A stretch of 64,000 nt of DNA from a virus (lineage: Duplodnaviria > Heunggongvirae > Uroviricota > Caudoviricetes), in the IMG/VR virus record IMGVR_UViG_3300013285_000009, positions 12,984 through 76,983 of that record. One strand, 5' to 3'. Shown piece by piece: positions 4,696-57,220 of this stretch. The position numbers and the translations under genes are program-made. The notes under the pieces were generated by a model, which was not told the origin of the DNA, searched no databases, and worked only from the letters and a program-made list of their open reading frames with translations. Every line of letters begins with the position of its first letter. Position 1 is the first letter of the stretch.

Positions 4696-5592
4696 ATGAC
4701 AAAGAAAACTCAAGAACCTAAAACTGTCCCGGTTGAAAAGGTTATCGAAATCGCTGAACAAGCGGCTGCTGAATCACAAACTCCACAAGCACCCCCTGCC
4801 CCAGGTACTGTTCAAGTGAATGTTGATTTCTTAAAGACTACTCGCGTACACATTGCAATGCCATGTTACGGTGGTATGCTTACTGAATCAACATTCATGA
4901 GCTTTATCAAATGGGCTAATACAGCACGTCAATTAGGTATCGATTGGACATTAGAAACAATGGTCAACGAAAGTCTTATTTCCCGCGCACGTAATACATT
5001 AACAGCTAAGTTCTTAGATATGCCTGATGCAACGCATTTGTTTTTCGTTGACGCAGACATTGGTTGGGAGCCATGGCACTTGTTAGTATTGCTAAACCGT
5101 GACGTTGACGTTATCGGTGGATTGTACCCAATGAAGACTATGCCAATCAAGTGGGTCGTCAATGGATTTGAGGGCGCAGAAGAAGGCCCTGATCAATTGC
5201 AAGAAGTCTCCAAAGCAGGCACCGGTTTCTTATTGATGAAGAAACATGTATTTGAAAAGTTGAAATCTCACCCTGCAGTTAAGCAATACAAGAATGATAT
5301 CGGACTTGATCCTAAGTTCGACCAACACTTGAAAACATACTTTGACACAGCAGTTCGTCAAGGCCGTTACTACAGTGAAGATTGGACATTCTGCGAAAAC
5401 TGGCGCGATATCGGTGGTCGTATTTGGATGGACAAACGAGTTCTGTTACGTCATACCGGTACATATACATTCTGTATGGAAAATCAAGAACATTTGATGA
5501 ACACAATCGGACCTATGTACGTTGAGCAGCAAGCTGCATTGGCAGCTGCTTCGGCTCCAGGTGCCGAAGGTAATGTTACTTTGACAACCTAA
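4696..5592 (+). CDS. hypothetical protein; possible GT-A type glycosyltransferase
   Basis: 298 aa; DxD-like FFVDADIGW segment; Ala/Pro-rich N-terminus; weak similarity only. Confidence 0.3.
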   Translation: MTKKTQEPKTVPVEKVIEIAEQAAAESQTPQAPPAPGTVQVNVDFLKTTRVHIAMPCYGGMLTESTFMSFIKWANTARQLGIDWTLETMVNESLISRARNTLTAKFLDMPDATHLFFVDADIGWEPWHLLVLLNRDVDVIGGLYPMKTMPIKWVVNGFEGAEEGPDQLQEVSKAGTGFLLMKKHVFEKLKSHPAVKQYKNDIGLDPKFDQHLKTYFDTAVRQGRYYSEDWTFCENWRDIGGRIWMDKRVLLRHTGTYTFCMENQEHLMNTIGPMYVEQQAALAAASAPGAEGNVTLTT

Positions 5593-12264: not shown

Positions 12265-13818
12265 ATGAAAAAGCTAACAGCAGTATCGTCACTTTTTCTA
12301 ATTATATTAGCCGCATGCGGTGGGGGCGACTTAGCGATATCAGGTACAACCGATCCACTCGCAAGTCACCCCGCTAATTTTTCAGGAAATATATACTCAC
12401 GTACTCATAGCACATTTTCCAACTCGATTGATGTATATTCAACCCCGTTGGCCGATGCTACTATTAGTTTGGGTACTCAAACTATAAATGCAGATGGCAT
12501 GGGTAATTTTGTCGGAACTGTTCCTACAGTGGTGCTAGCATCTGATACAGTCAACATCACCAAATCCGGATATATTCCGATCAACATTGCAAGATCATTG
12601 ATTGACTCGGCTTCTACTAATATAGGACTATACAGTACATCGAGTGTTAATAGTAGACCGGGATTTATCGGCGGAGTATTTACAATGGACGCCGGTGGCT
12701 ACTTGAATATGATATACAAGCGCAACCTTTTCAACTCTACTTACGATAGAATCAAAACTCAAACAGGAGCTAACTTAGTTGCATCATCTGACCCGGTATG
12801 GGTTGAATCATACGATGTGCAGGCCGGGACGGTAAGTATGAGTAGCACCTCGCAAATACCCATGATGACTAGACAGCAGTACACTACCTTAGTAGGATTG
12901 GCTCATAGTCAGAATATGCAATATATGATGCAGTTGGGGGTTTATCCTGCAGGAAGTCTTCAGATGCCATGGACTGTTCCCGCAAACAATACAGTATTTT
13001 GGACTGCTTGGTTTGCTGCATACAAAGAGATTGTTATTCAATATGCACAGATTGCAACAGACTTAAACATTGAATATATTTCACTTGGAATGAATCATGG
13101 GTTTATGAGTGCATTGCCAGTATCATACTGGAGTGACTTAGTTATCTCAGTCAGAAATACCGGGTATACCGGAAAAATTGTTTATCAAGCAATGATGAAG
13201 CCCGGAGTGTGGTCAGAGACTGACGGTTTCAATACGGCGGCAACTGGTAATCTCACTACTAGGCAGAAAAATTTACAATTTGTTAAACTTTTCGACTATA
13301 TAGTGCTAGACATATATAACATTGTAGGAAACGCTGATTCAAATACTAGTGCACCACGCAGTGATATGCGTAAATCATTTGCGACTATGTTACATAGTTT
13401 CACTGACTATCCGGTTCCACTCATGGTACAAATAGGAACACCGTCTATTCGCGGTGGCTCGGTAATTACTGATTACGTTGAACCGTGTATCGTATGTGTT
13501 TCAATCGCGCCGACTAAGACGATGGATTTGATGGAGCAAGCAGACGTATATCAAACTATAGGTGAAGTAATTAATGCAACACCAACCGGTAATGGTAATG
13601 TTATGGGGTTGATAAGCTGGGGCTATTGGTTTACTGATAATTTCAGAACAAATGTAACCCGCAAATCAACGGGTATAAATTCAGATGGTACACTTGTTGA
13701 TTCTACTGTCGCTATCGGGAATCAAAACTTAATATCAGCATACGACAAGTCAGCAAGTATTCGAGGGAAACCCGCTGAATCAGTATTTGGGTGGTGGATT
13801 AATAAATTCGCTCAGTAA
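12265..13818 (+). CDS. lipoprotein, function unknown
   Basis: signal peptide with lipobox ILAAC; 517 aa; Ser/Thr/Asn-rich. Confidence 0.5.
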   Translation: MKKLTAVSSLFLIILAACGGGDLAISGTTDPLASHPANFSGNIYSRTHSTFSNSIDVYSTPLADATISLGTQTINADGMGNFVGTVPTVVLASDTVNITKSGYIPINIARSLIDSASTNIGLYSTSSVNSRPGFIGGVFTMDAGGYLNMIYKRNLFNSTYDRIKTQTGANLVASSDPVWVESYDVQAGTVSMSSTSQIPMMTRQQYTTLVGLAHSQNMQYMMQLGVYPAGSLQMPWTVPANNTVFWTAWFAAYKEIVIQYAQIATDLNIEYISLGMNHGFMSALPVSYWSDLVISVRNTGYTGKIVYQAMMKPGVWSETDGFNTAATGNLTTRQKNLQFVKLFDYIVLDIYNIVGNADSNTSAPRSDMRKSFATMLHSFTDYPVPLMVQIGTPSIRGGSVITDYVEPCIVCVSIAPTKTMDLMEQADVYQTIGEVINATPTGNGNVMGLISWGYWFTDNFRTNVTRKSTGINSDGTLVDSTVAIGNQNLISAYDKSASIRGKPAESVFGWWINKFAQ

Positions 13819-16292: not shown

Positions 16293-16321
16293 TTGACATT
16301 AAATCATTTTGGGTGTATAAT
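16293..16321 (+). promoter_or_regulatory. family promoter (TTGACA-N17-TATAAT)
   Basis: GGTTGACATTAAATCATTTTGGGTGTATAAT followed by conserved leader AGACTCATAGACAGCAACAAACAGG. Confidence 0.65.
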
Positions 16322-37065: not shown

Positions 37066-38190
37066 TTAAGCAAACACTGCCCCGTTGTTTCCAACGCAGA
37101 ACCATTTGCTACTCATGTATTGTAATGTACAGCCTGCACCTATTGTGCCGAATGTCATGGTGCCGGCACCGGACGCTTTCCAGCCTGCGTTAGTAACGGT
37201 GATAACCATGTTACCAGCGGAGATACTATTAGCCATGAACGTTTTAATTTGGCCCGACACACCTGCTGCTAGTGTTGCAGTTTCTGCTGCTGCTGTTGTG
37301 AAGTAACTCGCGGTCGTTGCTAAACTGACTGCTGCCAAGTTTGCAAGGTCTTCGCCGCCGTTGAAGGACACGCGGCCCGTAGTTAGTAAATTACCACCGG
37401 TGATGTTGCCTGCGATTACCAAGTCATTTGGCAAATCAACTGTGATTGTACCTGACGATGATATTGGACTACCTGTGATTACCAATGAAGTGCTGCTTGT
37501 CACCGCAACACTGGTGACACCTGATAGTTGAGTCGCATTGATAGTTACGTTGCCGTTGCCACCGCTAACTGATATACCTGTACCTGCATTGATACGAGTC
37601 ACACCGGTGTTGATTATGTTGATGTTACCGGATGACGTGACCGGGCTACCCGTAACTTGAATACCGGCACCGGGTGTTACACCAACATAAGTTACAGTGC
37701 CGGCTGATGCAGCACTAGCGATATTTGCTACTCTACCGTATGAGTCTACCGTCAATGTGGGGTAAGTGTATGTACCCGGTATTAAATTGGGGATAGTAGC
37801 TAGATCGATACTAATGTTACCGCTTGTAACTAGCGGTGAGCCGGTTACTACCAATCGATTTGCACCGGGTAATAACCCGACGCTTGTAATACCCGCGCCG
37901 TTGCCGCTACCAGTAGATGATATCGTAACATTACCGTTTGAACTATCAATTACGATGTTGTCACCGGCAATGATATTTACCACGCCCGTGTTTGTTATGT
38001 CTAGTGTGCCGGCTGATGCATTATTTGCAACTGAAATACCGGTGTTGCCAGTGAATGTATTGTACGGACTAGCGTTTGAGAATAATATAGTAAAATTGGT
38101 GTTTGCCTTAGTGAATGCAGAGAATAGTGAGTCACTTCCTACTGATTCATTTGGTAACCCGATGTTTATTACCTGAATGCCTGATATCAT
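37066..38190 (-). CDS. tail fibre or receptor-binding protein with internal sequence repeats
   Basis: repeats VTGSPLVTSGNISIDL / VTGSPVTSSGNINII / ITGSPISSSGTITVDL; Gly/Ser/Thr/Asn-rich. Confidence 0.55.
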   Translation of the reverse strand: MISGIQVINIGLPNESVGSDSLFSAFTKANTNFTILFSNASPYNTFTGNTGISVANNASAGTLDITNTGVVNIIAGDNIVIDSSNGNVTISSTGSGNGAGITSVGLLPGANRLVVTGSPLVTSGNISIDLATIPNLIPGTYTYPTLTVDSYGRVANIASAASAGTVTYVGVTPGAGIQVTGSPVTSSGNINIINTGVTRINAGTGISVSGGNGNVTINATQLSGVTSVAVTSSTSLVITGSPISSSGTITVDLPNDLVIAGNITGGNLLTTGRVSFNGGEDLANLAAVSLATTASYFTTAAAETATLAAGVSGQIKTFMANSISAGNMVITVTNAGWKASGAGTMTFGTIGAGCTLQYMSSKWFCVGNNGAVFA

Positions 38191-38214
38191 GATTTAATCC
38201 TTATATAGTATTTA

Positions 38215-38544
38215 TCAAAATGGATTAAATGAACTCCCGCATCCGCAAGTAGTTTGGGCCTGTGGATTGCTAATCTTAAAGCTTGCACCCATCAAGTTTT
38301 CTACGTAATCTACACTCGCATTCAGTAAGTATTGAGCACTCAGACTATCAACTAGTATGACGGTATCACCTGAGGACACTTCAAAATCATCTTCATTTTT
38401 CTCATCATCCATAGCAAAGCCGTAGCTCATTCCACTACAGCCCCCACCTTGCACATACATACGCAAACGTACTGCGGGATTATTTTCTTCTAATAAAAGT
38501 TCTGCTATTTTATCGGTAGCGTTTTGTGTAATAGTAATGTTCAT
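38215..38544 (-). CDS. erpA: A-type iron-sulfur cluster carrier ErpA/IscA (HesB family)
   Basis: near-collinear with E. coli ErpA: RLRMYVQGGGCSGMSYGF ... VDYVENLMGASFKISNPQAQTTCGCGSSF (three conserved Cys). Confidence 0.9.
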   Translation of the reverse strand: MNITITQNATDKIAELLLEENNPAVRLRMYVQGGGCSGMSYGFAMDDEKNEDDFEVSSGDTVILVDSLSAQYLLNASVDYVENLMGASFKISNPQAQTTCGCGSSFNPF

Positions 38545-38556
38545 GTCTATATTTAG

Positions 38557-39318
38557 CTATGACAGGTCTTGTGTAATTCTTTTATGCAGGATTTCAGCGA
38601 GGCCCTTGCTAGATTCTATACCTTGATGATATAAGTCTCTTGAGAAGTCTATCTTCTTAAATTCAATTTCAGTATCACTTCCGATAGTATCATCAATTAC
38701 GATATTATATACAGGACAAGTAAGTACTGTCTTTAGGAGCTTTGTGGCAAGGAATCGACGTGTTTGAAACAATTGCACGTCATCACCTGCCATGATTAAA
38801 TCATGTATGGGTCTAAACTCTGACCAAATACCAGAGATTGCTAGGTCGCGGACTGGACGCATCTTGTGTAGGCCTCTAGTTGTGTAATTCGTGACAAATC
38901 GATTATAGTCGGGCCAGTGTATTATGACAGCTTTTGGTTTCTTTTGGGCAACCGACATCCAGTTGACGATATTGTACATGAGTACGTCAACACCCGAGCC
39001 ACTAACACCTAGATTATAATAATCACATCCCACCAATTTACTTGTCATTGCAGCATATGATAAATCTAGTTCAAGTCCGGCGCCAAAGGATGCACTTGCG
39101 CCGGCAAATAATATGTAATTGTCAAAGTCAATATCACTTATTTCCTTACTGCGGTGACCATGAGAATTCAATGAGTATTTAACCTCATGGTTACGATAAT
39201 ACCAATCTTGGGGTTGTGTTAGTAGACTTGCTGCAAATAACTTATCAGTATCAATTGCTATGTGATCTAGTACAATTGATGAGGCATCATCCCCTATAAA
39301 ATTATCATAGAAATTCAT
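38557..39318 (-). CDS. hypothetical protein, tandem paralog 1 (possible SGNH-type hydrolase)
   Basis: MNFYDNFIG.. N-terminus and NLGVSGSGVDVLMYNIVNW shared with 39305-39826. Confidence 0.4.
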   Translation of the reverse strand: MNFYDNFIGDDASSIVLDHIAIDTDKLFAASLLTQPQDWYYRNHEVKYSLNSHGHRSKEISDIDFDNYILFAGASASFGAGLELDLSYAAMTSKLVGCDYYNLGVSGSGVDVLMYNIVNWMSVAQKKPKAVIIHWPDYNRFVTNYTTRGLHKMRPVRDLAISGIWSEFRPIHDLIMAGDDVQLFQTRRFLATKLLKTVLTCPVYNIVIDDTIGSDTEIEFKKIDFSRDLYHQGIESSKGLAEILHKRITQDLS

Positions 39319-39826
39319 TTAATACTCCGGTAATATTATCAGTGACGTAATGCACGGGACAGTCACACACGCTTGCTATTAATTTCTTAGCAAGTAATTC
39401 TCGGCATTCAAAGTACTGGGTAATTTCGCCGGCAGTGATAACATCACTAATTACGGAATCTCTCTTATCCACTGGACCGAATGATACTATATCACATTTT
39501 TCTTTAATCTTGGCCCGCTTGGTATCAGTTGATGCAAAGATATTGGGATTGGGTAACCGAATTATTAATGCTTTGGGAGGTCGAGTAACAGTATAGAACC
39601 ATGCAATTACGTTGTGTAGTACAATATCAACACCCGATCCATCAACTGATAAGTTATAGTGCGGGGTCTCACTGAGTGCATCTGAAAACTCTCTTGAGTC
39701 GCCACCTACATATAAAATGTAGTCAGACTGTACAACAGTTTCAATTTCTTCACATAAGTGACCATTGGAGTTGAATCCACGTAGATTGCTTTCGTTGCTA
39801 CCTATAAAATTATTGTAGAACTTCAT
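39305..39826 (-). CDS. hypothetical protein, tandem paralog 2
   Basis: MKFYNNFIG..; VGGDSREF (GDS-like); NLSVDGSGVDIVLHNVIAWF. Confidence 0.4.
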   Translation of the reverse strand: MKFYNNFIGSNESNLRGFNSNGHLCEEIETVVQSDYILYVGGDSREFSDALSETPHYNLSVDGSGVDIVLHNVIAWFYTVTRPPKALIIRLPNPNIFASTDTKRAKIKEKCDIVSFGPVDKRDSVISDVITAGEITQYFECRELLAKKLIASVCDCPVHYVTDNITGVLNEFL

Positions 39827-40041
39827 TATCGTCTCCTCGTGATCCGGCCTTTAGTAAGATCATACGGTGAGAATTCTACTTCTACCGTATCACCTAGTAA
39901 TATTTTAATTGCATGTTGTCGCATCTTACCGGAGATGTGACCTACTATTTTTGCCCCGGATTCTAATGTAATACGGAATGTGGCATTCGATAACACATCA
40001 GTTACCTTGCCGTCCATTTTAATGCCTTCTTCTTTTGCCAT
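39826..40041 (-). CDS. infA: translation initiation factor IF-1
   Basis: [71 protein letters not shown], about 60% identical to E. coli IF1 along the full length. Confidence 0.9.
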
Positions 40042-40058
40042 TTAGTTTAGTATTTCCC

Positions 40059-40382
40059 TTAATTAACTTCTCGGGCTTGCAACTTTGCCCACATGAATTC
40101 TTTCATTTCTGCCTCATCGTTAGTAACATATCCGTAACGACCAAACTCGGTGCGATCTTTAATGATCTTAACACCACCCTTAGGTCCTTGACACCAAATT
40201 TTATTACTGAGTTCACCGTATCCGCGCACAAGTCGCTGACCTCGCAGAAGGTTAATTCGGTATACGCAAGCCGGGATTCCCGCGAAGTCTCGTTCAATGA
40301 CACAATAATAAGTACCTGTTTTATCCACGGCGCATCCTGGCAATATCAATTGCATCCTGATCACAGAACACCGGCACTGCAT
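40059..40382 (-). CDS. hypothetical protein
   Basis: 107 aa; overlaps 40321-40716 by 62 nt in another frame. Confidence 0.3.
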   Translation of the reverse strand: MQCRCSVIRMQLILPGCAVDKTGTYYCVIERDFAGIPACVYRINLLRGQRLVRGYGELSNKIWCQGPKGGVKIIKDRTEFGRYGYVTNDEAEMKEFMWAKLQAREVN

Positions 40383-40716
40383 TGCTCTTGTGCAGTTGGC
40401 TGATGCCTAGCATTTTTGTGCCAGTGTATTGTGGTGAGGGTTTGTGAGTCACAGCACCCGCTTCTCCTGTATTACGAGAAGGGATATGTTTAGTAGAGCG
40501 TCCTTCAGGCACAGTCAATGAATATTGAAGCGTTTCCGCCCGACTTGCGCACCTGCGTTTATTTTCTTCCTGCTCAACGCCCCACTTATTCTGCAATTCT
40601 TTCCAAGAGGCGGCAAGCTCTCGCGCTCTTTGTGCCTCTGCTGAACTCTTGAATTTCTGCTTACCCTTTAACTTGCCGGACGTGGTTAATGCCGGATGTG
40701 ATAGGTGCATTGTCAT
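40321..40716 (-). CDS. hypothetical basic protein
   Basis: 131 aa; Lys/Arg-rich. Confidence 0.35.
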   Translation of the reverse strand: MTMHLSHPALTTSGKLKGKQKFKSSAEAQRARELAASWKELQNKWGVEQEENKRRCASRAETLQYSLTVPEGRSTKHIPSRNTGEAGAVTHKPSPQYTGTKMLGISQLHKSNAVPVFCDQDAIDIARMRRG

Positions 40717-40780
40717 ATGGTAATATTGTACATTGTTGAACAGATTATAGTATACTATATTTATGCTTGCAAGTCAATCA

Positions 40781-41218
40781 TTATCTTTTCAAAATTGCCC
40801 AAACTTTCTCTTTTTCAATGATCTCTTTTTCTAGTTCTAGGTAGGCTTCGCGCAATCCCCGTAGATTTTCCCATTTTTCTTCTAGCTCTGGGTTTGGATG
40901 AAGGATAGCTAGCCGTTTCTCAATATTTTCTAAAACCTCTGACAACTTCTTGCCCTTAATAGTAATCTCACCGGAGAATGAAGCATTGCCTTGCACATCT
41001 AAAGTCGTGGGGTTATGATGCGTGGAGGCCGACACAGTACCCACCGTACCAAGCATTGAACTACCTGATATATTAACAGTAGGCCAAGCACCGGCATTTG
41101 ATCCGGCTAGGGATCCCGATGCTAATGTAGTTATTGTATTCGAGCCGCCGGCGATACCGATACCCTGCATGGTAGTATATATACTTTCTTTTATGGTAGG
41201 ATCAAGATATAGTGACAT
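40781..41218 (-). CDS. hypothetical Gly/Ser-rich protein with C-terminal coiled coil (structural or fibre-associated?)
   Basis: 145 aa. Confidence 0.3.
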   Translation of the reverse strand: MSLYLDPTIKESIYTTMQGIGIAGGSNTITTLASGSLAGSNAGAWPTVNISGSSMLGTVGTVSASTHHNPTTLDVQGNASFSGEITIKGKKLSEVLENIEKRLAILHPNPELEEKWENLRGLREAYLELEKEIIEKEKVWAILKR

Positions 41219-41408
41219 TGTTGTCCTTCTTATCGAGGATGTAGCGGCCCTGAGTATCTACCCCGAAGTCAATAGTATCTCCCTCTTTCCATCCTAGGAT
41301 TTCTAATAGGATAGGAGGGATTGGTAGTAAGATGTCACCTGTCTCCGGATCTTCTTGGGTGATTACTTCATATCGTTTGTTTTCTAATGCAGGATTTGGT
41401 TTAGTCAT
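41202..41408 (-). CDS. hypothetical protein
   Basis: 68 aa. Confidence 0.35.
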   Translation of the reverse strand: MTKPNPALENKRYEVITQEDPETGDILLPIPPILLEILGWKEGDTIDFGVDTQGRYILDKKDNNVTIS

Positions 41409-41409
41409 T

Positions 41410-41970
41410 TTAACTTTCTTGTCTAGCGTCGATATACGGGCGATAGATTTTTTCTAATTCTTGGATAGTGTGCTCTGTTGTACTATCATCGTGTTTTACT
41501 GCGATACCACCGTGGGCTGACCATGCATCCAAATACTTACCGAAGTCATCAACTAGCACGTTGGGTTGACCACCTTCAGTTGCATACTTATATTTGGCAG
41601 AAGTGAAAATAGCATCAGAACTGGTGCCCGGATTATGTGCATCTAACCATTCACGTTTGCCCTGTTTACTAGCCTCTCCCTGAATTCGAAGAGGTGCACT
41701 TAGTACAGTGTAAGGTATGTTATTATCACTCAGCCACTTGATTATAACTACTCCACCAGGAAGCGGGTTCAAGTCACGAAAGAAAGCATGTACATTTTCT
41801 GCACCAGTTGTGGCTAATTTGACAATTGATGCTTCATGGTCAGTGATATGCTTATAGTGATGCACGTTTTCAAACTCGGCCCAAGCTTGAAAAAAGTCAG
41901 CTTGAACTCCGTCCATGTCCAGGTACAAATGGGGAATTTTGTTGGGATATGTGATTTCAGTTGGTTTCAT
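41410..41970 (-). CDS. 5'(3')-deoxyribonucleotidase (HAD superfamily, NT5C-like)
   Basis: LYLDMDGVQADF DxDGV motif at the N-terminus; 186 aa. Confidence 0.7.
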   Translation of the reverse strand: MKPTEITYPNKIPHLYLDMDGVQADFFQAWAEFENVHHYKHITDHEASIVKLATTGAENVHAFFRDLNPLPGGVVIIKWLSDNNIPYTVLSAPLRIQGEASKQGKREWLDAHNPGTSSDAIFTSAKYKYATEGGQPNVLVDDFGKYLDAWSAHGGIAVKHDDSTTEHTIQELEKIYRPYIDARQES

Positions 41971-42088
41971 AATGTAATGATATAATTGTTGATGTAGCTC
42001 ACTTAAATATTATTATACACGTATTTAATTCGCAAGTCAATAGAGTGTGGGCAATAATACCAAGAGTAGTTTAAACTACCGAACCAAT

Positions 42089-49802: not shown

Positions 49803-49831
49803 ATTATACACCCAAAACCATTTAATGTCAA
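49803..49831 (-). promoter_or_regulatory. family promoter, minus orientation
   Basis: reverse complement GCTTGACATTAAATGGTTTTGGGTGTATAAT plus leader AGAATCTTAAACAGCAACAAGTAGGG. Confidence 0.65.
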
Positions 49832-52523: not shown

Positions 52524-53210
52524 ATGAACTACCCTATTACTCAACTTCACCGGGATAACTTTAAGCCCACTTATCTGTATATCAAGCAGCATACAGAAAC
52601 GGGCAAACTCTATTTTGGAAAAACTACCAAAAAGAATGTTGAGAGGTATACTGGTTCTGGAATACATTGGGGCCGTCATATCAGTGCTCACGGGAAAGAC
52701 AAAGTAGTTACACTTTGGTATTGTTTATACACAGAGATCGAAATTTTAGTTGAAACTGCTTTGGCAATGTCGGCAATAATGGATATAACTGAATCAACTG
52801 ATTGGTTAAACTTTAAGCCAGAATCTGGATTAGATGGCGGCTCGTTTGTTGGGTTCAATGGATGGGCTGGTAAGAAACATTCTCCAGAGCACATCGAAAA
52901 ATTAAGAAAACTCGGAAGAGAACGCCCTGTTACTGAAAATATGCGGAATAGTTTTTTAAAGCGTGATTTTAATGGCGCTAAAAATGGCATGGCATTACAC
53001 ATAGATATTTTCGATGACACTGGATTGCTAAGATTTAAATGCCATGGAAATTTCGAGAAATTATGCATTGAAAATAATCTACCTATGGGACCGCTTAAGA
53101 TTTCGTATGCCAGAGGAGGAAAACCAATTTTTACATCAAAATCCACAGGTAGATTGAAAGATTTATCCATGTTAAAATATAAAAATTGGTTTGCTAAAAT
53201 AGCAGTTTAA
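52524..53210 (+). CDS. GIY-YIG-type homing endonuclease (Seg-like), plus-strand insertion
   Basis: YLYIKQHTETGKLYFGKTTKKNVERYTGSG variant GIY-YIG core; only plus-strand gene in this part of the minus block. Confidence 0.55.
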   Translation: MNYPITQLHRDNFKPTYLYIKQHTETGKLYFGKTTKKNVERYTGSGIHWGRHISAHGKDKVVTLWYCLYTEIEILVETALAMSAIMDITESTDWLNFKPESGLDGGSFVGFNGWAGKKHSPEHIEKLRKLGRERPVTENMRNSFLKRDFNGAKNGMALHIDIFDDTGLLRFKCHGNFEKLCIENNLPMGPLKISYARGGKPIFTSKSTGRLKDLSMLKYKNWFAKIAV

Positions 53211-54226
53211 TTACCAAGGAAGTGGGTCAGGATCTCATAATGATCTTCAAAGCATTCTTCACTACGAACTTCTGCGATAGGAACCCACCGTGCTTTTTCG
53301 GCATCGTCACTGCCTTTTACTTTTGGCAGTTCACCATCGGGCAACTGAATATAAAATGCATGTGTGATGATACGACCACGCGGGCTCCGATCCACAGCAT
53401 CAAATACCTTGCTTCGTACAATAGATCCACGCAACACAGGACCGGGTACTTTGATCAATGTTTCTTCACGCAATTCACGGATAGCAGCATCTTCCACATT
53501 CTTGTCAGTCTGTGCATTTACATAGCCACCGGGCAATGCCCACAATCCCTTACCTGGTTCAGCGCGGCGCTTAATCATCAGCACATGCCCACTTTGGATA
53601 ACAACTGCGTCAGCAGTAACAAAGATTGGAGGATACTTCAAACTAGCGTACTGCTTTGCATTTTCAATCAAGAATTCACGTTCACGGATAATTTGTTCGT
53701 ACTCAGGGGTCTCTTTAAATTGATCCAAGAAGTCAAACGTAGTCTTTGGAACAACGTTCTTAATGAAGTTCATATTTACATCACGTTTGAAATACAAGTT
53801 ACGAATGTCAGTCGCATCCAGTGGCTCCAGCAGTTCAACTTCTTCAAAGCCCCATTGCGGAAACGTATCAAGATAGAAACTTGACGGGTCTTTCTTGTGA
53901 CCAATAATGCCAATCTTTTCGCCAGGGACAGTATGCTTGGCAACTAGTGCTTGCACACGAACAGCCCAGGCTTGGTCATTGTAGATAGTATCGGGATTTG
54001 CTTCCACGTGAATAGACAAGTCAAGTCCGCCAGTGGCATACTTGATCATTTTGTAACGTTCATCAAACGTGAACGGGTTCTTGTAAGTGCGAGGCTGATT
54101 AGCTGACCCGCAAATAAAGATTAGTTTTTTGCAATTTGCAGTGGCACGATGCGCCAAGAGTAAGTGAGCAGTGTGGAACGGTTGAAAACGTCCGATTAGG
54201 ACAAGTGTATCGTATTTTTTAGACAT
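53207..54226 (-). CDS. natV: bifunctional NMN adenylyltransferase / Nudix ADP-ribose pyrophosphatase (NatV/NadM-Nudix)
   Basis: N-terminus LIGRFQPFHTAHLLL (HxGH NMNAT); C-terminal Nudix box GGYVNAQTDKNVEDAAIRELREETL. Confidence 0.85.
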   Translation of the reverse strand: MSKKYDTLVLIGRFQPFHTAHLLLAHRATANCKKLIFICGSANQPRTYKNPFTFDERYKMIKYATGGLDLSIHVEANPDTIYNDQAWAVRVQALVAKHTVPGEKIGIIGHKKDPSSFYLDTFPQWGFEEVELLEPLDATDIRNLYFKRDVNMNFIKNVVPKTTFDFLDQFKETPEYEQIIREREFLIENAKQYASLKYPPIFVTADAVVIQSGHVLMIKRRAEPGKGLWALPGGYVNAQTDKNVEDAAIRELREETLIKVPGPVLRGSIVRSKVFDAVDRSPRGRIITHAFYIQLPDGELPKVKGSDDAEKARWVPIAEVRSEECFEDHYEILTHFLGN

Positions 54227-54227
54227 A

Positions 54228-54554
54228 TTAATAACCTCGAATCAATTTGAATGCAGTGAGAGTAGAAGCAATGTCCAATCCATGTTCGTCACAATGGCAG
54301 ATCATTTTCTGTGCTTTTTTCAAATACTCACTGTGGGCGTGACTTGTCCAGTCGTCTTTTTTGTTTTTGACTTCATAATGCCAACCGCAACCATCTGTGT
54401 GGTTGTGAGTGCAGAGCATACCGTGCAACTCTTTGGCAAGTTGATGATCTGGTGATTCGAGTTTAGCCGCAATCAGTTGGGCTTGCAAGTCTTTGAGACC
54501 TTGCTCATGTTGTTTGATTTGTTCTTCGATAGCGAAGAGAGTTAATTTTGACAT
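54228..54554 (-). CDS. small Cys/His-rich protein
   Basis: 108 aa; CTHNHTDGCGWH..HAHSE..CHCDEHG. Confidence 0.4.
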   Translation of the reverse strand: MSKLTLFAIEEQIKQHEQGLKDLQAQLIAAKLESPDHQLAKELHGMLCTHNHTDGCGWHYEVKNKKDDWTSHAHSEYLKKAQKMICHCDEHGLDIASTLTAFKLIRGY

Positions 54555-54613
54555 TGAAAAATCCTTTCAATTAATGTCAGTAGAAAGTCTATCTCTCTAC
54601 AGTTTATAATTAC

Positions 54614-54642
54614 ATTATAGCATGACCTGTATTAAAAGTCAA
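54614..54642 (-). promoter_or_regulatory. family promoter, minus orientation, divergent
   Basis: reverse complement GCTTGACTTTTAATACAGGTCATGCTATAAT. Confidence 0.5.
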
Positions 54643-54657
54643 GCTATAATTTTTGCA

Positions 54658-55710
54658 TTAAAATGCATCGTAGTTGAAGGTATGTTGCTTGATTCTAGTC
54701 AAAGTCAAGCGTGTACCATTGTCTTCAAACACGAACTTACCGTCCACAGCGCTGATAGAAACCAGTGCCTCAGTGCTGAAAGTCTGACTCTTCCATTCAC
54801 CGTCGTCATTTTCGGGTTCTGGATCAAATCCGACTGAAATGCCCTTTTGTTGCAGAGGATTGCCGTCAAACACACTAGGGTTCACGCCTTCTACATCAAC
54901 ACCATTGAACACAACCTTCACATCGTACTTTGTGCCGCCGTCAAATTCTGGCTTAGCATTAAGCATACGCAATGATTCCTGCGGGCTTTCATTGTAGCGA
55001 TTCATTTCTTCAACCAATGCCTTAAGCATATCAAAGTTGAATTCGGCGAACAAGCTAGCGATAGAGCAAATCTTTTCAATGTGATGCTTTGCATCCAAAT
55101 TGTCATTGCAGTATTCAGTAATGAATTCGGCACCAAGTCCCTTGAAGTCAATCATGTAGTAGATACGACCTGGACGATTGCGCATATGTTGGTCAACACG
55201 CCACTTGTCATTACAAGTCAATGCATACAGTTTCTTAGAACCAAATACACCGTCAAGCAAAGTCAAGATAGATTCTTGTTCGTCACGGTCATACACCTTC
55301 TCGAATTCGTCAAACAGAACCATGCACGGCTGTTCAATGTCTTGCAACAGTTTGTTGAAGTTGTCGCCATGCCATGGGCTATTGATAACGATAGTAGGTA
55401 CACCTTGCTCAGCCAACTCAATAGCGATATTCTTAGCAAGCAATGTTTTACCAGAACCCTTTTCACCGTTCAGCATGATACCGGTTGAAACGGTACGCTC
55501 TGTGAAAGTGCGGATAATACGGTCAGTGTTCTTGAAAGTATCACCGTACAGCTTTGATGGCTTCACAAAACTTTCAATTTGTTCCAGATATAGATTACCA
55601 AACGGATCAGCCTTGATGATGTAATTACCGGCGGGTAATTTTTCATGCAAGTCGAGGGAGTCCTTTGTGGACACTTTGAAGCTAGAACCAGATTTCAGAA
55701 AGTAAGTCAT
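54658..55710 (-). CDS. AAA+ ATPase of unknown function
   Basis: Walker A LNGEKGSGKTLLAKN; Walker B CMVLFDEFEK; about 130-aa N-terminal domain and about 100-aa C-terminal domain. Confidence 0.55.
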   Translation of the reverse strand: MTYFLKSGSSFKVSTKDSLDLHEKLPAGNYIIKADPFGNLYLEQIESFVKPSKLYGDTFKNTDRIIRTFTERTVSTGIMLNGEKGSGKTLLAKNIAIELAEQGVPTIVINSPWHGDNFNKLLQDIEQPCMVLFDEFEKVYDRDEQESILTLLDGVFGSKKLYALTCNDKWRVDQHMRNRPGRIYYMIDFKGLGAEFITEYCNDNLDAKHHIEKICSIASLFAEFNFDMLKALVEEMNRYNESPQESLRMLNAKPEFDGGTKYDVKVVFNGVDVEGVNPSVFDGNPLQQKGISVGFDPEPENDDGEWKSQTFSTEALVSISAVDGKFVFEDNGTRLTLTRIKQHTFNYDAF

Positions 55711-55783
55711 ATTTTATCGCGTTGTTTTAATGTATGATTATTATATCAGGGATGCGACCCAATGTCAACATCCCTGATACTTT

Positions 55784-57220
55784 TTATTTACGAGCGTTTG
55801 CCCGAACTTCTTCAAAGGTGATTTCTTTTACAAGCACTCCATCACGAAATACTTCATTCAGCACATTAGTCCAACCACCGGTGCCTTTGTCAGTCCATCC
55901 CATTGGCTGAGTTACTGCTGACTGATATTCACCACCTGATTCCCAAAGAGTAACACGACCACGCTTGCTACGCTTACCACTATCAGTGATAGGGTCTTTG
56001 TAAACATCGCGCCACACCAAACTTTTGAAAGGACCGTGATCACGTTCAGTAGAATATTCACGAACACCAATCGCGCTACACTTCATTGCCCACTGCATTG
56101 TGTCACGATCCACACGTTGCAGCAATGCACCACCTTGACCAAACGCCACGTTGTCTGCACTGAATCCTGCAATTTCCATACAGAACAAGATGCTGTGGAT
56201 GCTTGCTTGATCAATACCATCACCTTGGATGATACGCACTGCTGGGTTTAGAACACGATAGCCTTTAGCGTTGACAGTTGAACCAAAGTGTTTTTCAAGA
56301 ATGTACAAACACTTTACAACCACGTCAGAGGGGTTGCCCGAGTCCGGGCGGACGACCAAAGTTGCGCCACTGTCAAGGACGTCTTGTTTAAGGACTGTGC
56401 CCCAGAGTTCACAGGCTTTGTAAATGTCGTAGCTGTCCGAGACGCAAGCGAAGATGCCCCCTGCTTTTGCGTTTTGCTTGACCATGTTGCGGTACGAGTC
56501 AACTTCATTTTCTTTACCCCAAGATGTTACAGTAGAGTGTTCCATAGCTGGAATACTGAACCCAGCAATGCCAGCGTTATAATACTCCCGAGCGTAAAGA
56601 ATGCCCGAAACAGTATCCGACCCCATAAAGTTGACGAGATGGGCAGCGCCGCCAATTGCAGCAGATTCGAGACTAGATACACCACGAGCACCAAAGTCAT
56701 GAAGTTTGAAATCGATAGTAGATGGGTCACCAGTTTTTTCCAATGCAGCAAGAATGATTTTTTTAGATTCGTAGCTGTTAGTTGCTACTGTAGTAGGATA
56801 CCAAATTGCGCGGAGCAATGCAGTTTCTAGGAACGAGGTGAGCCAGAAGCAGTTGGGATCCGTGTTCTCAATAGTTGCCAATACATTTTTAATAGGGACA
56901 AGTGTGCCTTCAGGAACAGCTTTGATAACGACAGGAAGTTTACCTCCGTGTACCCGTAGAATGTATTCCCATCCTTCTCTGTTGAAAGGTTCTCCGTGAG
57001 CAGTGATGATCGCATCAGCAAGATCAATGTCGGCTTGAACGATTGGCTCAATTAGATACTCCTTAATAAATGCTTGTAATCCGAAGAAAACAGTATCATT
57101 CCATTTACCACCGCGTGATTCAATGTATGAATAAACGTATTCAGTACCAGGGGGATACTGATTAAATTGACTGAATTTGTAACTATCCGAATTGAGAATG
57201 ATGTTTTTAAAACTTGACAT
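55784..57220 (-). CDS. nadV: nicotinamide phosphoribosyltransferase (NadV/NAMPT)
   Basis: collinear NAMPT hallmarks: NSDSYKFSQ, IKAVPEGTLVP, TDPNCFWLTSFLET, KLHDFGARGVSS, GGAAHLVNFMGSDT, RPDSGNP, IQGDGID, SGKRSKRGR. Confidence 0.95.
   Translation of the reverse strand: MSSFKNIILNSDSYKFSQFNQYPPGTEYVYSYIESRGGKWNDTVFFGLQAFIKEYLIEPIVQADIDLADAIITAHGEPFNREGWEYILRVHGGKLPVVIKAVPEGTLVPIKNVLATIENTDPNCFWLTSFLETALLRAIWYPTTVATNSYESKKIILAALEKTGDPSTIDFKLHDFGARGVSSLESAAIGGAAHLVNFMGSDTVSGILYAREYYNAGIAGFSIPAMEHSTVTSWGKENEVDSYRNMVKQNAKAGGIFACVSDSYDIYKACELWGTVLKQDVLDSGATLVVRPDSGNPSDVVVKCLYILEKHFGSTVNAKGYRVLNPAVRIIQGDGIDQASIHSILFCMEIAGFSADNVAFGQGGALLQRVDRDTMQWAMKCSAIGVREYSTERDHGPFKSLVWRDVYKDPITDSGKRSKRGRVTLWESGGEYQSAVTQPMGWTDKGTGGWTNVLNEVFRDGVLVKEITFEEVRANARK

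Follow-up and report, generated by a model that had tools for sequence, protein, structure and literature searches.

IF1 and IF3 have been listed among the translation genes of huge phages, where together with S21 they were interpreted as a means of translation redirection (Al-Shayeb 2020, PMC7162821). In Jug phages, a 'translation initiation factor 1A' gene is conserved in 4/4 groups (PMC12880540), and the largest isolate among the freshwater jumbophages described in 2026 has an initiation factor (PMC13573597). Such factors are widely cited as evidence for a takeover of host translation by large phages. The gene analyzed here, infA, encodes a 71-amino-acid (aa) homologue of initiation factor IF-1 and lies on the minus strand at positions 39826-40041 of a 64,000-nucleotide stretch of uncultivated phage DNA (IMG/VR record IMGVR_UViG_3300013285_000009, positions 12,984 to 76,983), referred to below as the window. 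By sequence and predicted fold it is a genuine full-length infA orthologue, and the divergence and arrangement of its relatives mark it as an old and useful phage gene, not a recent pick-up. IF-1 on phages has been reported before (Al-Shayeb 2020; Lak, Jug and Phosso phages); what is added here is the size and coherence of one clade, its gene module, its promoter, a residue signature at positions 44 and 69, and an odd translation-initiation region.

The open reading frame (ORF) comprises 71 codons plus stop, with the ATG at 40041-40039 and TAA at 39828-39826, and its translation is the peptide quoted in an earlier note that was made from this sequence alone. The coordinates in that note stand; its missing strand assignment is minus. 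The note had also put the protein at about 60% identity to Escherichia coli IF1 over its full length. The homology does run without gaps, and the measured value is lower, with 39/70 residues identical (56%) and 71% positives against the E. coli K-12 protein (NC_000913.3 b0884). Pfam family PF01176 (eIF-1a/IF-1 S1-like domain) was matched at 2.7e-22 over profile positions 1-64/64 (78.6 bits versus a gathering cutoff of 30.2), and the NCBIfam infA equivalog TIGR00008 at 1.4e-30, residues 3-70 aligning with profile positions 1-68/69 (105 bits versus a cutoff of 61.15). The eIF-1A model TIGR00523, with a cutoff of 102.9, gave only 21.8 bits. Twelve distinct IF-1 sequences in the PDB were matched with E values from 1e-11 to 4e-21. 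The protein is a single domain of 71 aa without extensions (E. coli IF-1 has 72 aa), a size that is typical of its relatives: among 85 IF-1 ORFs from viral loci, 72 are 71 aa long and the remainder 70 or 72 aa. Full-length matching was also obtained to phrog_30201 (4.7e-27), which PHROGs labels 'unknown function'; this is evidently the phage IF-1 family and can be annotated as such.

An AlphaFold2 model of the protein reached a predicted local distance difference test score (pLDDT) of 87.9 and contains five beta strands with a short helix between strands 3 and 4. Its secondary structure elements (strands at residues 8-16, 21-26, 31-36, 52-57 and 64-70; helix at 38-42) follow the canonical b1-b2-b3-helix-b4-b5 order. 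When the model was searched with Foldseek, the best matches were all IF-1, with template modelling (TM) scores of 0.89-0.95 and root-mean-square deviations (RMSD) of 0.7-1.5 Å. The RMSD of the predicted fold was 1.0 Å to 30S-bound E. coli IF1 (9fco_I) and 1.5 Å to 30S-bound Thermus thermophilus IF1 (1hr0_W).

Residues through which IF-1 touches the 30S subunit were then compared. In T. thermophilus, A16, P18, A20, R23, R41, R46 and R64 contact helix 44 (h44) (10.1101/2023.10.27.564398, after Carter 2001); K2, Y35, G38, K39, M42 and R66 contact the 530 loop, and A1, E3, Y60, D61 and R64 contact protein uS12 (both bioRxiv 10.1101/2023.10.27.564398). The corresponding residues here, at the 14 positions itemized, are K3, S18, A20, R23, H35, G38, K39, R41, Q42, K46, Y60, D61, K64 and R66. 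All itemized positions are identical or conservatively replaced, and S18, K46, H35 and Q42 are also seen in bacterial IF-1s. Across the phage clade defined below, K3, G38, R41, Y60, D61, R66 and R70 are each present in 100% of sequences, K46 in 98% and A20 in 96%, while the conservative alternatives are P/S18, R/K23, Y/H35, K/R39, Q/K42 and K/R64. Position 16 is valine in 98% of the clade versus proline or alanine in bacteria. Binding of E. coli IF-1 to 30S depends on its C-terminal Arg69, numbered without the initiator Met (PMC4611024); of 150 diverse IF-1 representatives, 99% have R70. The residues that place IF-1 in the 30S A site (h44, 530 loop and uS12) are thus kept, as would be expected of a competent IF-1. 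The reading we favor, and on sequence and model regard as reasonably probable, is that the phage makes its own working IF-1, which would occupy the 30S A site like host IF-1 and sustain initiation during infection.

The contact residues also bear on whether the protein might instead act mainly away from the ribosome, melting structure in phage transcripts as an RNA chaperone or antiterminator of the CspA type. Both IF-1 and CspA are RNA-binding proteins with the oligonucleotide/oligosaccharide-binding (OB) fold (PMC9947658, citing Phadtare & Severinov 2009), chaperoning of RNA is counted among the functions of IF-1 (PMC10913371), and a CspC-like phage protein was present among the weak structural matches at rank 17. 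The residues conserved in the clade, however, are the ribosome-contact set and not a generic RNA-binding surface; the TIGR00008 score is high, no cold-shock-domain family occurred among Pfam matches at E ≤ 0.01, and a csp quadruple deletion is not rescued by IF1 overexpression (PMC9947658). We consider this role quite improbable.

Relatives of the gene were collected from viral and protein databases. At least 289 viral stretches in IMG/VR encode IF-1 relatives, so that the remark in the earlier note that viral infA is rare needs qualifying. The best 80 of these 289, from which the counts out of 80 below were taken, show 66-97% IF-1 identity and lie on contigs of up to 524 kb. A search of 5.8 billion proteins gave 5113 matches; the best 120, almost all of them 71 aa long, show 73-94% identity, and their contigs reach 359 kb. 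Related contigs reach 335-367 kb among the IMG/VR relatives and 338-359 kb among those from the protein database. The largest contig, IMGVR_UViG_3300027749_002876 (524,565 bp), carries two different IF-1 copies approximately 358 kb apart, with 83% and 74% identity to the query; it may combine two related phages in a chimeric or concatenated assembly, or contain a real duplication. No cultured clade member was found in INPHARED, and megablast of positions 38000-42000 against 50,697 phage records returned nothing.

For 55 distinct 71-codon IF-1 sequences, the median proportion of differing synonymous sites (pS) was 0.78, which is saturated, and that of nonsynonymous sites (pN) was 0.16. The ratio of nonsynonymous to synonymous substitution rates (dN/dS) within the clade had a median of 0.08 and a 95th percentile of 0.16; even the closest pair, with dN 0.022, had dS 0.556. 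Median identity of IF-1 is 76%, the highest in the module, compared with 48-62% for the NT5C, p68, p145, p131, IscA and p374 proteins encoded around it (see below). The G+C content (GC) of infA is 40.7% and that of the window 41.5%. Because dN/dS is 0.08, synonymous sites are saturated, GC is phage-like and gene order is shared, the gene is taken to be old and under strong purifying selection.

The same data bear on the suggestion that infA has no phage function and stems from recent host capture, an assembly chimera or bacterial contamination. Some database records do give cause for such caution. 'Acinetobacter phage MD-2021a' (CAKLQH020000005.1) is a bacterial chromosome in which infA is flanked by ansA, truA, gadX, leuB and leuD, and several other INPHARED IF-1 records, from Listeria, Staphylococcus and Enterococcus, are short (1.5-4 kb) or unannotated and may be host DNA; some 'phage' IF-1 records therefore deserve flagging as bacterial. 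In the present case, however, the gene order recurs on many viral contigs that come independently from different samples, the best bacterial identity among the matches listed is 69% whereas identity inside the viral clade reaches 97%, there is no ribosomal-protein or secY-map context, and a phage gene overlaps the infA stop codon (TAATG). With synteny, dN/dS and GC all opposed to it, this explanation is effectively refuted, and we regard it as extremely improbable. That the IF-1 copy is phage-borne, as the earlier note held, is borne out by rIIA, rIIB and PHROG-typed genes in the window and by the nearest homologues, all of which lie on viral contigs and share its gene order.

Among the matches listed from 185,579 species genomes, the best bacterial IF-1s were 69% identical and came from two Paludibacteraceae metagenome-assembled genomes (MAGs) and one Planctomycetota MAG, followed by Campylobacterota at 64% and Actinomycetota at approximately 60%. 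In a neighbor-joining (NJ) tree of 240 sequences, all clade members (61/61) occupied a single split, joined by only three unnamed representatives carrying the residue signature described below and by no named bacterium. Support from 200 bootstraps was modest, the exact split being recovered in 23/200 and the clade with up to 6 extra sequences in 103/200. The commonest near-outgroups in the bootstrap trees were the huge-phage IF-1s of LR756508 and Phosso. The phylogeny proposed in the earlier note as a route to the donor lineage thus places the clade apart from named bacteria, with modest support, and singles out no donor or sister group. Any claim of a donor was rejected, as matches of at most 69% among those listed are scattered over four phyla and tree support is modest. 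A host in the Bacteroidota, which the Paludibacteraceae match might suggest, is unlikely because the phage has 36 canonical TTGACA/TATAAT promoters, a promoter type that argues against such hosts. No cultured phage is close, rIIA being only approximately 30% identical to that of PA5oct and KVP40-like phages. Relatives of p131 occur in PhiW-14-like phages, a hint of a distant connection with these phages or with Burkholderiales hosts.

Where the clade departs from other IF-1s is at positions 44 and 69. Among 150 diverse IF-1 representatives, 94% have Y/F/H at position 44 and 92% have Y/F/W at position 69. These positions covary, with aromatic residues at both in 129/150 and R69 accompanying the rare D/N44. 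In the phage clade, position 44 is never aromatic (D 70%, T 14%, A 9%) and position 69 is R/K. Most of the clade has D44/R69; the window protein has A44/R69 (codons 39910-39912 and 39835-39837, minus strand) and likewise lacks the near-universal aromatic pair. Further clade features are K46, L49, F57 and an RRR tail. The combination of a non-aromatic 44 with R/K69 was present in 60/60 clade members and 120/120 top database matches, compared with 5/138 diverse representatives and 0/36 sequences from bacterial genomes; it was absent from every named bacterial genome sampled. One of the signature-positive representatives is a 900-bp fragment on which the gene adjoins a WYL_2 gene, and the WYL_2 family is also present in the window. 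In the structural literature searched for residues 44 and 69, no role for them is described. We infer that the swap is a compensating pair that tunes binding; the clade changes lie outside the listed contacts and probably tune affinity or release kinetics without abolishing function.

These substitutions raise the further possibility of a re-tuned IF-1 that actively hijacks initiation. The 44/69 swap and the RRR tail would then alter 30S residence or cross-talk with IF2, IF3 or the 50S subunit, and phage messages would be favored through changes in the fidelity of start-site choice, in subunit joining or in the freeing of vacant or hibernating ribosomes, possibly with the help of the co-transcribed p131. 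Besides the clade-wide signature and the covariation, the net charge is increased (isoelectric point, pI, 9.8 versus 9.2 in E. coli), and kinetics are known to matter, as IF1 blocks bridge B2a, helps to destabilize vacant or incorrect 70S ribosomes, and gates 70S maturation by its release (PMC13345285). A basic protein, p131, is encoded upstream of IF-1 in most loci, and ribosomal protein S21 is encoded near IF-1 in one relative. However, the listed ribosome contacts are all kept, so a new activity is not forced, and K46, L49, Y35 and non-His30 are each present in some bacterial IF-1s; p131, moreover, is not obligate, as detailed below. We hold hijacking to be a tentative and rather doubtful possibility.

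The gene sits in a conserved minus-strand module with the order NT5C - p68 - p145 - p131 - IF-1 - IscA-like - p374. In the window, the block begins with an NT5C-type 5'(3')-deoxyribonucleotidase (41410-41970, minus; PF06941 at 4e-10, phrog_2643), followed on the same strand by p68, a small acidic ORF that is weakly MazE/AbrB-like (41202-41408; PF04014 at E 0.0048, below the cutoff; phrog_661), p145, a conserved ORF with no family match that lies upstream of p131 (40781-41218), and p131, a 131-aa basic protein (40321-40716; phrog_27048) whose gene is usually directly upstream of infA. Here, an 89-aa basic accessory ORF without family match (p89; 40059-40328, minus) intervenes between p131 and infA. 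Downstream of infA are two accessory paralogues, par173 (173 aa; 39305-39826, minus), whose ATG overlaps the infA stop codon, and par253 (253 aa; 38557-39318, minus), then the IscA/HesB-like Fe-S cluster biogenesis protein (38215-38544, minus; PF01521 at 1.9e-19, phrog_17776) and p374 (37066-38190, minus), which is repetitive and possibly fibre-like and has no Pfam, PHROG, NCBIfam or PDB match. Genes on the same strand and in the expected order were found for p131 in 72/80 loci, p145 in 71/80, the IscA-like protein in 64/80, p68 in 62/80, p374 in 61/80, NT5C in 56/80 and p89 in 19/80. The 173/253-aa paralogues, which are 29% identical to each other (E 1e-26), stand between IF-1 and the IscA-like gene in 18/80 loci and are an accessory insertion. 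Three database relatives show the arrangement NT5C - MazE-like - ~135 aa - ~131 aa - (~100 aa) - IF-1 - (0 or 2 paralogues) - IscA-like - ~370 aa.

The relationship was also viewed from p131, which has 3365 homologues, all hypothetical. When loci were anchored on p131, IF-1 was downstream in 30/73, and 39/43 of the loci without IF-1 lacked the p145 and IscA context. Where p145 and p131 occur together, IF-1 is present in 25/29 loci, and none of the 73 p131 loci was an 'empty site' with p131 next to IscA and no IF-1. IF-1 is therefore near-fixed in the module, and the p131 family is broader, extending to PhiW-14-like phages without IF-1 (Delftia phage PhiW-14 and Acidovorax phage ACP17). On these counts, p131 was rejected as an obligate IF-1 partner. 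Searches of Pfam, NCBIfam and the PDB gave nothing that indicates its function, PHROGs gave only the unannotated phrog_27048, and its AlphaFold2 model, built from 58 sequences, was poor (pLDDT 68; predicted TM score, pTM, 0.32). IMGVR_UViG_3300025389_001023 carries at least two p131 copies approximately 11 kb apart.

Only two sizeable gaps interrupt the minus-strand block, and both contain the best sigma-70 matches. The first, located in the divergent intergenic region that precedes NT5C, has TTGACT-17-TATAAT (11/12 matches; 42012-42040, minus). The second is the 64-nt gap before p131, where a consensus scan located TTGACT-17-TATACT overlapping TTGCAA-17-TATAAT (40744-40777, minus). A TTGACA-17-TATAAT-like element is present at a fixed distance before p131 in 51/55 distinct relatives and has been kept although synonymous sites of the flanking genes are saturated; this is the probable promoter of a p131-(p89)-infA unit. 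Throughout the window there are 36 TTGACA-N17-TATAAT sites, allowing at most 1 mismatch in the hexamers, versus 0.99 expected. They span 5581-57867, on the plus strand from 5.5 to 36 kb and on the minus strand from 42 to 58 kb (for example 16293-16321, plus, and 49803-49831, minus), and 34/36 are co-oriented with genes, the exceptions at 5581 and 57214 being the weakest matches (-10 element TATAAA or TAAAAT). The cassette consists of cggTTGACAttaaatggttttgggtgTATAAT followed by the leader AGAnTCTTAAACAGCAACAAATAGGA-N6-8-ATG, the leader being conserved in approximately 25/36. The cassettes are probably the early-promoter family of this phage. Such a promoter set is a hallmark of an early region read by host sigma-70 polymerase, as in the T4-type early promoters.

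The conserved leader that the earlier note described is thus real, and its further proposal, that IF-1 biases initiation toward mRNAs bearing this leader, is unsupported. Most of the repeat is promoter DNA that lies 5' of the transcript, what is transcribed of it is an unremarkable A/C-rich leader bearing an AGGA Shine-Dalgarno sequence, and the infA operon itself is without it. Sequence-specific recognition of mRNA is not known for IF-1.

Translation signals in the infA unit are unusual. The p131 start codon forms ATGA in 53/53 distinct relatives, with a short leader and no Shine-Dalgarno sequence, and in 46/53 this TGA terminates an upstream ORF (uORF) that is 4-17 codons long, most often 5, and whose peptide is not conserved; in the window this is the mini-uORF MYNITI* (40713-40733, minus), whose TGA overlaps the p131 ATG. 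The head of p131 looks like termination-reinitiation coupling and is possibly a regulatory device. Before infA there is a degenerate Shine-Dalgarno-like TAAGGGA (40055-40061, minus), 13-14 nt from the ATG and overlapping the p89 stop codon. In 40/53 distinct upstream regions of relatives, AGGAG lies 11-17 nt from the IF-1 ATG; in this phage, 18 early genes of the standard type have AGGA at a distance of 5-8 nt. The A-rich spacer, at 40042-40061 and in relatives, shows neither an evident hairpin nor another start codon. The IF-1 start trails the upstream gene by 0-28 nt, and the IF-1 stop overlaps the next start. From these signals, we infer that infA expression is early, driven by host polymerase and translationally moderated.

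The following sequence of events is proposed for a working phage IF-1 that sustains initiation. Host sigma-70 RNA polymerase would transcribe infA early from the conserved promoter before p131, and translation would be moderated by the distant Shine-Dalgarno sequence and by coupling to upstream genes. The product would bind host 30S exactly as host IF-1 does, and the ratio of IF-1 to ribosomes would be raised or held during infection; in cold shock, IF1 and IF3 do increase relative to ribosomes (PMC9947658). In this way, 30S initiation complexes could keep forming fast and vacant 70S ribosomes could be split after host shut-down or in slow or cold hosts. Any gain for phage mRNAs would be indirect, arising from their being the abundant templates at that time, with no sequence-specific recognition implied.

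Several points weigh against this proposal. No experimental study of any phage IF-1 was found in the literature searched. The p131 promoter is called from a consensus match plus conservation, not from a mapped start. Spacing of 11-17 nt between the Shine-Dalgarno sequence and ATG suggests low expression, a poor fit to the idea of flooding the cell with IF-1, and high IF1 may itself inhibit translation, according to a published hypothesis (PMC10913371). Finally, with the aromatic 44/69 pair missing in the clade, a functional shift is conceivable.

A more elaborate version that unites several of these features appears to us unlikely. In it, loss of the aromatic pair and the RRR tail would change 30S residence or cross-talk, the operon signals would form an autoregulatory sensor of initiation capacity, and the specialized IF-1, together with p131, would reprogram or reawaken vacant or hibernating ribosomes early in slow-growing hosts.

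The simpler proposal, that the phage sustains initiation with its own IF-1, gains weight from the history of the gene. Purifying selection, a fixed operon position and a conserved host-type promoter across hundreds of large-phage contigs show a lineage that is not sporadic cargo; IF-1 must therefore pay its way. The covarying 44/69 substitutions, the conserved unusual initiation region and the constant upstream gene p131 offer experimental handles. If the variant residues change the kinetics of ribosome binding, the protein would offer a natural means of studying how 70S formation is gated by the release of IF-1; if kinetics are unchanged, keeping IF-1 supplied would by itself be worth a gene to the phage.

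The window as a whole is the early/auxiliary region of an uncultivated jumbo-type phage. It corresponds to positions 27,490-91,489 of a metagenomic phage contig of 131,875 bp in ENA, which is probably partial. Called genes include rIIA (phrog_612, 1e-131), rIIB, a ClpB/Lon-like ATPase, an HD protein, RNA ligase, ferritin, ferredoxin, NAMPT, NMNAT-NUDIX, dCMP deaminase, MazG, NT5C and the IscA-like protein. Among the calls in the 64 kb there is no virion module and no transfer RNA, transfer-messenger RNA, S21, IF3 or other translation gene. The surroundings (67-2073, plus; 53207-57220, minus; and beyond) contain a proteostasis set of DnaJ, a ClpB-like AAA+ protein and ClpP, and a complete salvage pair for nicotinamide adenine dinucleotide (NAD+), NAMPT and NMNAT-NUDIX. 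The combination of a proteostasis set with NAD+ salvage is as reported for gut jumbo phages.

This content has a bearing on a defensive role, in which IF-1 would be a decoy or spare against a defence system or competitor toxin that hits host IF-1 or the A site, restoring translation after abortive infection. The support is circumstantial: the region is rich in counter-defence-type functions (NAD+ salvage by NAMPT and NMNAT-NUDIX, and RNA ligase), and surface changes specific to the clade could protect the protein from a modifier. On the other hand, no gene of the module looks like a known anti-defence gene, and no defence system that targets IF-1 was met in the literature consulted, PADLOC not having been searched. 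We judge this role to be very improbable.

The earlier note had placed infA inside a tail-fibre region, between tail-fibre-associated paralogues and small basic proteins. Paralogues are indeed present, and the flanking proteins p131 (pI 10.0) and p89 (pI 9.1) are basic; the tail-fibre link is not supported, as the called genes are early/auxiliary and the neighbors par173, par253, p374, p147 and p145 match no family or PDB entry. A tail-fibre association was rejected for the paralogues and for p374 for this reason. A 'GGDS' motif in par173 recalls block I of SGNH/GDSL hydrolases, which is a sequence impression only. The p374 protein has repeated '(V/I)TGSP(I/V)TSSG(N/T)I' segments and ends in a domain rich in Gly and Ala, and in one relative it is followed by a 1115-aa ORF and a Laminin_G_3 protein. 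In another relative, JGI 3300047548 Ga0485233_000020, whose IF-1 is 80% identical, genes for S21, HSP20, ClpS, a SprT-like protein and ClpP lie within 8 kb upstream of IF-1, and superoxide dismutase directly downstream.

Compared with bacterial IF-1 (TIGR00008, PF01176), the phage protein is alike in length, its single OB domain, 56% identity, predicted fold, contacts and C-terminal Arg, but has A44/R69 without aromatics, together with K46, L49, F57 and the RRR tail. Bacterial infA is monocistronic or part of a ribosomal-protein cluster, whereas the phage gene lies inside a phage operon. Giant viruses (Klosneuvirus, Catovirus, Indivirus and Marseillevirus LCMAC202) encode eIF1A, which is likewise viral and of the OB-fold superfamily (query-normalized TM score approximately 0.82); those proteins are eukaryote-type, 146-198 aa long with tails, and 17-19% identical, whereas the phage gene is bacterial-type. 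Members of the CspA family are small, five-stranded OB-fold RNA binders structurally similar to IF-1 (PMC9947658), from which the phage protein is set apart by having no cold-shock-domain match and by conserving the ribosome-contact residues of IF-1. Phage bS21 and similar proteins (PMC7162821) follow the same proposed logic, that of a small initiation-related component, with a different protein and binding site; a relative has S21 approximately 8 kb from IF-1, and none was found in the window.

The closest counterparts are the IF-1s of huge phages such as Lak, Jug and Phosso, which are of the same kind, a bacterial-type IF-1 on a large phage, and are read as part of a translation-redirection toolkit. 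A tblastn search of INPHARED with the window protein matched 36 records, including Phosso, Lak, DAC and LR7565xx phages. Identity was 64% for Phosso, a cultured Sinorhizobium phage (PV764938, 469 kb) with an annotated IF-1, 54% for LR756511 and 49% for Lak. The IF-1s of Lak, DAC19 and LR756511 keep an aromatic residue at position 44, and that of Phosso has N44 but Y69. In contrast to these, the present clade is separate and tighter (66-97% identity for the best 80 of 289), with a module and a 44/69 signature of its own.

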